Shown here: in pieces, positions 52,776-54,080 of the stretch
Layout of the letters: each line of letters begins with the position of its first letter
Numbering within the stretch: the first letter of the stretch is position 1
Notes under the pieces: model-generated
Databases searched by the model: none
What the model was told of the DNA's origin: nothing
What the model saw: the letters and a program-made list of their open reading frames with translations, nothing else
IMG/VR virus record: IMGVR_UViG_3300045988_154156
Source of the DNA: a virus
Strand: one strand, 5' to 3'
Length of the DNA: 64,000 nt
Program-made: the position numbers and the translations under genes

Positions 52776-54080
52776 ATGGCTTTTAAAATGAGAACAACTC
52801 GTCCAGAAGCTGGTAATAAATATTATATTACTAAAGCTAATGGTGGGTATTCTTATGCTATTAAAGGCAGTCCAACAGATAAATAGAATGATGTTTTAAG
52901 TAATTGTGTTGGATACGCATATGGTCGTTTTAATGAAATCGGCGGATATGGATATTGTAAATATTTAAGTCCAGTTAATGCTGAACGTTTTCCGCAATAT
53001 AATAATACTGGTATTCCAATGGGATAGACTCCAAAGCTTGGAGCTTGTATGGTATGGCGAGGCGGCCCCACTTTAAATAGTGGAGACGGTGTTGGACACG
53101 TTGCTATTGTTGAAAAGATTTATAGCCCTACAAAAATTATGACTTCTGAGAGTGGTTGGGGCAGTAAAAATCCATTCTGGAATGCTACTCGTGAAAAAGG
53201 AAATGGTAACTGGGGCGCAGGCGCTGGATATAAATTTCTTGGATTTATTTATAATCCAGCAGTAACAGACACTGGAGACGTTGATACTGATACAAGTAAT
53301 CAATATGGATTTGGCAAAACCAATAGCCCATTAGTAAATTATACTAAGATTAGTCCTAATAAAACCAGTCCTCGTAATCATGTAATTGATACTGTTACAA
53401 TTCATTGTGTAGTTGGACAATGTTCTGTTGAAGCTCTTGGAAATATATTCGCACCAACATCAAAACAAGCTTCTTCTAATTATGGCATTGGCCCTGATGG
53501 TAGAATTGGTATGTATGTTGAAGAAAAAGATCGTTCATGGTGCTCTTCTAATGCAGCTAATGATAATCGTGCTATTACCATTGAAGTAGCTAGTGATACT
53601 ACAAGTCCATATGCCGTTACTGATAAAGCATATGCGGCTTTAATTAAACTTCTAGTTGATATTTGTAAAAGAAATAATATAAAAAAATTAGTATGGTCTA
53701 CTAATAAAAATGATAGAGTAAATCATTTAAATGGATGTAATATGACAGTTCATAGAGATTATGCTAATAAATCTTGTCCCGGCGAATATTTATATAGTCG
53801 TCATGGAGATATTGCTGCTAAGGTTAATGCTTAGCTTGGAGTTGTTGAGGAGGATGAAGATATGACACAAGAAACATTTAATGAAATGATGAATAATTAT
53901 TTAATTGAATTAGCTGAAAAAAATCCTAATACTTATTCTACAGATGCTCGTGCTTGGGCAGAAAAAAATGGATATATTAAAGGTGACGAAAAAGGCCGTA
54001 AAATGTATAAGAAGTTTATGACTCGTGAAGAAATGATTACAGTTTTATATCGTATTTTAAAGGATAAATCTTTAATATAA
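52776..54080 (+). CDS. Endolysin with an N-terminal CHAP domain and a central amidase_2 (PGRP-type N-acetylmuramoyl-L-alanine amidase) domain. TAGs at 52884 and 53028 are read as sense. A TAG at 53832 fuses the protein in frame to a 72-aa C-terminal module (53862-54080) that also has its own SD and ATG.
   Basis: CHAP motifs NCVGYAYGRF (Cys) and GHVAIVEKI (His). Amidase_2-like region NHVIDTVTIHC ... NRAITIEV ... CPGEY. One frame runs from 52776 to TAA 54078-54080 with only TAG interruptions. GAGGAGG precedes ATG 53862. Confidence 0.65.

Follow-up and report, generated by a model that had tools for sequence, protein, structure and literature searches.

A conserved internal start in a TAG-recoded gut phage endolysin points to a free SLH-like binding chain

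The window analyzed here is a 64,000-nucleotide stretch of DNA from the IMG/VR virus record IMGVR_UViG_3300045988_154156. It derives from an uncultured gut phage of ~201 kb that reads TAG as glutamine and is present in gut samples such as ERR414321. Its plus strand carries a single endolysin gene in which a CHAP domain, an Amidase_2 domain and an acidic linker are followed by a 72-amino acid (aa) C-terminal module resembling one SLH motif (Table 1). We propose, with a probability of roughly three in four, that this gene is translated both from its main start and from an internal in-frame start, so that full-length and free module chains would assemble into an SLH-type hetero-oligomer.

An internal ribosome-binding site precedes the C-terminal module

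The endolysin frame runs from ATG 52776 to TAA 54078-54080 and is interrupted by three TAG codons only. An earlier sequence-only reading of the window had described the frame as open through these codons to TAA 54080, which is borne out, as TAG is decoded in this genome (118 in-frame TAGs, no gene ending in TAG). That reading placed TAGs correctly at 52884 and 53832, but the remaining one, assigned to 53028, begins 3 nt earlier at 53025. It had also pointed to the Shine-Dalgarno (SD) sequence GAGGAGG before ATG 53862. Both stand where it put them, separated by an 8-nt spacer, and codon 363 opens an in-frame stretch of 72 codons to the same TAA. The internal start sits 25 codons past the end of Amidase_2, between the catalytic and binding domains, and a free module initiated at this Met is predicted to begin with MTQETFNEMMNNYLIELAEK. 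The window has 15 sites at which ATG or TTG lies 6-11 nt after an AGGAGG, and 13 of these are called gene starts. The other two are 14562, the probable true start of the gene called at 14574, and the internal endolysin site. Since this combination otherwise marks gene starts in the window, the SD and ATG 53862 are not a chance motif.

Homologs of the module were found in an annotated phage collection, a protein catalog, 62 viral contigs and 21 bacterial genomes, the latter mostly from Oscillospiraceae and other Clostridia, where the copies read as prophages. They represent about 45 lineages besides this phage, standard-code prophages included, and the string GGAGGA-N8-ATG/GTG is conserved across them at the nucleotide level. 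The consensus upstream of the module's first codon in 28 non-redundant viral loci is xAG GAG GAy GAr GAy ATG. The bases G, A, G and A at -12, -11, -9 and -8 never vary, -13 is G in 27 loci, and -10 is G in 24, with the same motif moved 3 nt upstream in three of the remaining four. Twenty-six of these loci start with ATG and two with GTG, and the start is ATG in 21/21 loci from bacterial genomes. Some bacterial copies carry variants (AAA GGA GAT, GAA GGG GAT) that alter the amino acids and retain the SD core. Codon -5 encodes E, Q, K, M or Y, or is TAG, while the nucleotides completing the SD motif are retained, and the constraint therefore lies on the RNA and not on the protein. Codon usage is equally selective. 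At -5 and -4, Glu is encoded 39 times by GAG and four times by GAA in 27 low-GC loci, whereas GAG accounts for 21% of Glu codons inside the module and for one of 23 at codon -2; the whole window has 1005 GAA and 207 GAG codons. Judged from these nucleotide patterns, the internal SD and start codon are under selection, and the 72-aa module is very probably also made alone from its own ribosome-binding site.

The strongest argument that the fused and free forms are both needed comes from one lineage that may serve as a natural control (L029, L030 and L083, a contig from an Erysipelotrichaceae metagenome-assembled genome). Here the module is a stand-alone gene of 73 aa with a TAA just upstream and its own SD, AAGGAGGA, and it directly precedes a CHAP+SH3 endolysin that carries a fused, diverged module copy. 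The cassette at 1964-4544 of L029 comprises, in order, a secreted CHAP-like protein, the free SLH-like module gene, the CHAP+SH3 endolysin with its fused module, and a holin homologous to window 54080-54496. The junction of the fused copy reads CCA GTA GAA GAA ACT GTT ACA (with ATT in L030). It has lost the SD and encodes Glu with GAA, and a non-start Val or Ile codon stands in place of the Met. The protein fold thus requires neither the Met nor the GAG codons. Loss of the internal start was seen only where a separate gene supplies the module. Because a gene that would itself supply a free module retains the SD and ATG, and both have decayed where another gene supplies it, both forms appear to be needed.

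The internal SD is unpaired in the predicted mRNA fold, and the structure nearby does not exceed shuffled sequences in stability (z = +0.74); we therefore propose no structural switch. Promoter-like sites in the 50.5-55 kb region do not exceed the shuffle expectation, leaving a separate module transcript unsupported.

TAG itself forms part of the internal SD (TAG GAG GA...) in two other recoded lineages, at codon -6 in L013-L019 and L075 and at codon -5 in L063; elsewhere this position holds GAG, CAG, AAG or ATG. A Gly-rich late open reading frame (ORF) of the window (13481-14518) contains six internal AGGAGG in GGAGGAGGA runs, none leading to the start codon of a gene. The phage thus tolerates SD-like strings within its genes.

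The module resembles a single SLH motif and is ancestrally fused

A profile of the module family searched against the PDB matched the SLH domains of Bacillus anthracis Sap (3PYW, 6BT4) with E about 2e-6 and single-SLH trimeric outer-membrane proteins (8BZ2, 8BYS, 8BYM, 7ZGX); there were no other notable matches. The Pfam SLH model (PF00395) matches seven of 17 module members (best E 9.5e-8), two full-length homologs exceed the curated SLH cut-off (L001 with 29.5 bits, L050 with 24 bits), and the homolog P0017, which has two motifs in tandem, was already annotated as SLH. Binding by SLH domains is defined by a Trp, a GIIxG and a TRAE motif (PMC12285257). The module in the window has counterparts of all three in W394, G399-Y-I-K-G403 and T416-R-E-E, at columns that are invariant or at least 90% conserved in the family alignment. 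These motifs are preceded by a conserved N-terminal helix that begins at the internal Met (MTQExFNxMM). We infer that the module is a single SLH-like cell-wall-binding motif and hence a putative binder. Homology to the C-terminal domain of CD27L and CTP1L was also considered and rejected, as the PDB profile search returned SLH proteins only.

In nearly all homologs, the module is the in-frame C-terminal part of an ORF of 117-494 aa with neither TAA nor TGA in between. These uninterrupted fusions include standard-code genomes of 53-63% GC without any TAG in the gene. Its catalytic partners are Amidase_2, CHAP, CHAP+Amidase_2, Peptidase_M15_3, Peptidase_M15_4 and Peptidase_C39_2, as well as Phage_lysozyme2 with Amidase_2 or CHAP, NAGPA+SPOR+Amidase_2 and CHAP+SH3. 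With partners this varied, the module behaves as a portable cell-wall-binding domain. A tblastn search of the annotated phage collection with the module returned four records, none from a cultured phage. The family is widespread in gut Clostridia-type phages and prophages, where one SLH-like motif is joined to at least nine catalytic architectures and always comes with an internal ribosome-binding site.

By this comparison the fused architecture is an ancestral single gene and not a product of the third TAG. Around codon 353, the full-length translation reads ...VNAQLGVVEEDEDMTQ..., in which the part preceding the codon ends ...AAKVNA and the stretch VNAQLGVVEEDEDM spans the TAG-encoded Q. The amidase homolog in L004 has A-Q-L encoded with CAG where the window has A-TAG-L, other homologs have K, L, R, I or Q in this variable column, and TAG at codon 353 is restricted to near-identical contigs of the same species-level lineage.

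TAG is a glutamine codon across the phage genome

Gene calling with TAG as a sense codon yielded 78 plus-strand genes, which occupy 91% of the window and include 118 in-frame TAGs. They end in TAA (59 genes) or TGA (19 genes), never in TAG. TAG and CAG are nearly mutually exclusive: late-type genes (466-24262, 50700-54080 and 61170-63675) use TAG and CAA with almost no CAG, whereas genes within 26.5-50.5 kb use CAG with almost no TAG. The endolysin has three TAG, no CAG and five CAA codons. In the PhoH-like gene 5' of the endolysin, conserved TAG columns are occupied in relatives by CAG 16, CAA 18 and TAG 14 in one case and by CAG 23 and CAA 25 in the other. The isolated TAGs of two early genes (28669 and 40050) are both mid-protein.

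ARAGORN and Rfam detected no suppressor tRNA within the window, which has six tRNAs. A human-gut contig of 201,103 bp (L072) is 100% identical to window positions 1-12557 and places 18 further tRNAs directly upstream of the window, one with the anticodon CTA. TAGs thus lie inside conserved genes, align with Gln and never terminate a gene, and a CUA suppressor is encoded, as is characteristic of code 15. The pattern is not that of programmed readthrough, as TAG in the window is a frequent sense codon and never a gene end. We conclude from these sequence features that all three endolysin TAGs are ordinary Gln codons, predicted to be read by the phage's own amber suppressor tRNA.

Inspected by eye, the suppressor tRNA has a U1·C72 mismatch and G73 and is about half identical to the phage tRNA-Gln(TTG). 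The phage tRNA set comprises 18 genes at L072 83-7346, just upstream of the window, and six at window 24334-26471. The DNA ligase gene (59906-61111) has one mid-gene TAG at 60383, where standard-code callers cut the ligase in two, and codon 4 of the gyrase B ORF (54665-56581) is a TAG (54674). Structural and lysis genes are thus not strictly the only recoded ones.

Early genes at 26536-27603, 28927-30459, 30762-33248, 37264-38163, 42749-44263, 44722-45522 and 49132-50520 share a codon dialect in which Gln is encoded by CAG only (no CAA), TTA is nearly avoided, and AAG, CTT and CTG are favored. The GC content at their third codon positions is 0.22-0.43, compared to 0.10-0.19 elsewhere in the window, and several have long antisense ORFs on the minus strand (for example 28903-30282, 30690-32939 and 42719-44143). 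The window thereby has three codon classes, namely the dialect early genes, the late genes (CAA and TAG) and the gyrase and ligase genes (CAA and TTA).

A two-polypeptide endolysin and the alternatives

Three SLH motifs make a functional three-prong unit, and proteins with a single SLH motif reach this state by trimerizing. The single motif of the endolysin would likewise attain a three-fold wall-binding unit only as a trimer, and the active enzyme thus most likely combines full-length with free chains in a hetero-oligomer. The same mRNA would yield the 434-aa full-length enzyme of about 48 kDa and, by presumed initiation at ATG 53862, the free 72-aa module of about 8.5 kDa. Late in infection, the enzyme would need three suppression events and the module none. 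Full-length and free chains could then co-assemble via their SLH motifs, for example in a putative 1:2 stoichiometry, and the resulting wall-binding trimer would bear fewer than three bulky catalytic arms. Both steps have published precedents. The amidase LysBT1, which has one SLH domain, trimerizes through that domain (PMC12285257), and free binding-domain chains from in-frame internal starts of other endolysins assemble with the full-length chain (PMC9430671, PMC4777826, PMC7098653).

Several observations weigh against this proposal. Support for either product is at the level of sequence, not protein, and charging of the suppressor tRNA with Gln, as well as its efficiency, is presumed. The window's 72-aa module alone falls below the Pfam SLH threshold, and searches of Pfam and PHROG with it gave noise. 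Structure prediction, which the sequence-only reading had suggested for this module as a possible wall-binding or regulatory domain, gave an AlphaFold2 model of the 81-aa linker plus module whose helices lie where expected but whose confidence is low (pLDDT 68), and one of the two-motif P0017 with a pLDDT of 55, also low; both were too uncertain for use. A Foldseek search of the PDB returned no match with E<1. Fold and oligomer are thus deduced from sequence profiles and by analogy. LysBT1 homotrimerizes with no free SLH chain reported, so a free module is not strictly required. Conservation of the junction could partly be explained by transfer of the module from gene to gene as a cassette of DNA, an idea countered by the codon-specific contrast between GAG and GAA at module identities down to ~35%.

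A different kind of explanation would separate the module from the enzyme, with the endolysin ending at TAG 53832 and an independent 72-aa ORF following in the same frame by chance, for which the odds are one in three. A stop, an SD, 8 nt and an ATG do resemble a normal gene boundary, standard-code callers split the locus there, and a real stand-alone module gene exists in one lineage. However, no other gene in the window ends in TAG, its TAGs are decoded throughout, a suppressor tRNA adjoins the window, and the two TAGs in the CHAP region need to be read through anyway. Homologs, moreover, have the junction as an uninterrupted ORF, including the one with CAG at codon 353. We consider two genes highly improbable and the use of TAG 53832 as a stop, which the sequence-only reading had named as its refutation, at odds with the rest of the window. 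Its idea that the last TAG fuses two units is not supported either, given the ancestral ORF, although its suggestion that the module exists both in a fusion and alone fares well: the long product includes the module, and the free form is very probable.

The same reading had proposed that temporally regulated amber suppression could set the architecture and activity of the endolysin and so time lysis. In such a model, suppression would choose between a wall-binding long endolysin and a non-binding one of 352 aa. Under incomplete suppression, some ribosomes that passed codons 37 and 84 would indeed halt at 353, three recoded lineages have a TAG no more than 10 codons before the internal start (-10, -6 and -5), and a timing role has been proposed for recoded stops in lysis genes (10.1101/2021.08.26.457843). 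Yet TAG occupies the variable column 353 in one species-level lineage only, and the three TAGs found within 10 codons of the internal start compare with 1.6 expected among 16 recoded lineages (P = 0.21). Architecture and internal start are the same, with no TAG, in most of the family, including standard-code prophages. Unsuppressed translation would moreover stop at codon 37, before the catalytic Cys, and the third TAG adds no on/off information. Since the first two TAGs gate all catalytic product, the third alone cannot choose between a long and a short enzyme. With a TAG that is neither conserved nor enriched and an architecture that exists without it, such a switch finds no support and is very unlikely. 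The general gating of lysis genes by recoded stops is an already published and plausible hypothesis (bioRxiv 10.1101/2021.08.26.457843). We can speculate about another form of it, in which the ratio between full-length and free chains, and hence the assembly of active SLH trimers, depends on suppressor-tRNA activity. The free module has its own SD and no TAG while the catalytic chain has three, so the ratio could follow suppressor activity. We think such a stoichiometry-based timer rather unlikely; if true, lysis timing gated by the genetic code would be layered on a conventional two-polypeptide endolysin.

GAGGAGG-ATG might also not initiate translation at all, being an acidic linker with a structural Met or an SD-like pause site, with full-length protein as the only product. 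Acidic linkers are common, the Met opens a conserved helix, LysBT1 functions as a homotrimer (PMC12285257), and screens for internal starts yield false positives, with 15% predicted even in portal genes (PMC9430671). The conservation is nonetheless of nucleotides and not of amino acids, since six different codon identities at -5, from E to TAG, all keep xAG GAG GA. GAG is chosen at -5 and -4 but GAA at -2, a Val that replaces the Met beside an SD is encoded by GTG, and a separate module gene coincides with the loss of both SD and ATG (GAA GAA ... GTT/ATT). These details make a site that does not initiate translation unlikely and favor the two-polypeptide endolysin.

Layout of the lysis locus and other features of the window

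Both catalytic domains exceed their Pfam gathering scores, and PHROG endolysin families match the 434-aa frame at 1e-57. An identical sequence in the NCBI contig ULXM01060006.1 (L074) is called as one 434-aa CHAP+Amidase_2 gene by a code-aware gene caller, whereas standard-code callers break it into three fragments. For annotation, this means that the three fragments are one endolysin and that public clusters of 72-aa 'hypothetical proteins' are its predicted wall-binding tail. The ORF that follows is holin-like as judged from its position and hydropathy, with a hydrophobic segment at aa 19-38 and a second, weaker one. It has no match in Pfam or PHROG, and homologous small membrane ORFs adjoin the endolysins in L029 and L002.

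Table 1. Features of the endolysin locus and the associated suppressor tRNA. Positions refer to the window unless another contig is given.
Feature	Position	Strand	Remarks
Terminator-like hairpin 5' of the lysis unit	52714..52746	+	13-bp stem, then T run; between PhoH-like gene and endolysin
Shine-Dalgarno AGGAGG of the main endolysin start	52763..52768	+	7-nt spacer to ATG 52776
Endolysin gene, single (CHAP / Amidase_2 / acidic linker / SLH-like module)	52776..54080	+	434 aa with TAG = Gln
TAG, codon 37 (Gln)	52884..52886	+	N-terminal edge of CHAP, ahead of catalytic Cys motif NCVGY; column variable among relatives
CHAP domain, aa 42-126	52899..53153	+	PF05257, 41.4 bits (cut-off 26)
TAG, codon 84 (Gln), within CHAP	53025..53027	+	CAA 7 / TAG 1 in relatives ~75% identical
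Amidase_2 domain, aa 202-337	53379..53786	+	PF01510, 67.3 bits (cut-off 26)
TAG, codon 353 (Gln), last helix or linker past amidase	53832..53834	+	Predicted ordinary sense codon; CAG (A-Q-L) in L004
Internal Shine-Dalgarno GAGGAGG	53847..53853	+	Two rare GAG Glu codons and GAT of acidic linker
Internal in-frame start ATG, codon 363	53862..53864	+	Conserved as ATG/GTG in relatives
72-aa C-terminal module	53862..54077	+	N-terminal helix and one SLH-like motif (W394, G399-YIK-G403, T416-REE)
Holin-like ORF, 138 aa	54080..54496	+	Start overlaps endolysin stop (ATAATG)
Terminator-like hairpin ending the endolysin-holin unit	54498..54532	+	16-bp stem, then T run
Amber suppressor tRNA, anticodon CTA (CUA)	L072 7272-7346		1.3 kb before the first base of the window

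Among the early genes, a block at 42749-46029 encodes NAMPT, Macro, NAD synthase and NADAR proteins (Pfam labels from an identical contig) and looks like a phage NAD+ salvage or counter-defense module. A direct repeat of 171 bp (10506-10676 and 12864-13034, 92% identical) duplicates a gene start together with its SD (TAAAGGAGGTAAGTAAAATGGCAAA at 10655 and 13013). Several late proteins near this repeat carry an Mtd_N domain (PF18454).

Comparison with known systems

Gut phages with recoded TAG are known to have recoded structural and lysis genes and their own suppressor tRNA (bioRxiv 10.1101/2021.08.26.457843; PMC9523058). As in the code-15 gut phages of Borges et al. (bioRxiv 10.1101/2021.08.26.457843) and Peters et al. 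(PMC9523058), TAG lies mostly in the structural and lysis modules here, the replication genes mostly follow the standard code, the phage has its own suppressor tRNA, the genome is low in GC and ~200 kb in size, and an amidase-type lysin has recoded stops. We see no fundamental difference from these phages. The lineage here lies outside the annotated phage collection, to which a megablast of window 40-64 kb gave no match, and its split of CAG and TAG between early and late genes is near-complete. The recoding story thus gains little beyond a very clean example.

In the bacteriophage Q-beta, programmed stop-codon readthrough yields the extended protein A1, and the stop ends translation by most ribosomes there. 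The endolysin frame similarly runs past a nominal stop into a functional C-terminal extension. TAG is, in contrast, a genome-wide reassigned sense codon here, and the apparent extension is an ancestral domain.

PlyC consists of PlyCA and eight PlyCB subunits that are encoded by separate genes. The split variant in L029, L030 and L083 resembles it in that the binding subunit comes from its own gene beside the catalytic gene. PlyC differs in that its catalytic chain lacks its own binding domain and PlyCB has no relation to SLH.

The closest counterparts of the proposed system are the two-polypeptide endolysins made from internal starts, namely Lys170 and LysIME-EF1 (PMC7098653), CTP1L and CD27L (PMC4777826), LysP7951 (PMC9430671) and phi2638A (PMC12203907). 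The shared features are a strong in-frame SD and start between the catalytic and wall-binding domains, at a position conserved across homologs, and a free C-terminal chain that is expected to associate with the full-length chain. The binding module here differs in being a single SLH-like motif, a type that we did not find among the published cases; its internal start is conserved over many catalytic partners, and it is known from sequence alone. Like the endolysin here, LysBT1 from a Brevibacillus thermoruber prophage joins an amidase to one C-terminal SLH domain with the W, GIIxG and TRAE motifs, and this domain mediates both trimerization and wall binding (PMC12285257). LysBT1 is described as a homotrimer with no internal start reported, whereas an additional N-terminal helix and a conserved internal start characterize the module here, which belongs to gut Clostridia-type phages. 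The LysBT1 study, the only paper on an SLH endolysin that we found, presents its enzyme as the first of this type and mentions no internal start (PMC12285257). The combination of a single SLH-like motif, an internal start conserved across partners and a split variant was not found described, within an incomplete coverage of the literature.

Judged by its sequence features, the locus is at once of three known kinds: a code-15 phage locus, a modular CHAP/Amidase_2 endolysin and a two-polypeptide endolysin with an internal start. We regard the finding as useful for annotation and endolysin engineering and not surprising in principle. When such lysins are expressed or engineered, deleting the internal start or codon-optimizing GAG GAG away could inactivate the enzyme. 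Beside the known two-polypeptide endolysins and the LysBT1 homotrimer, the family offers a clear, testable case in which SLH-type binding units would be assembled from full-length and free chains.

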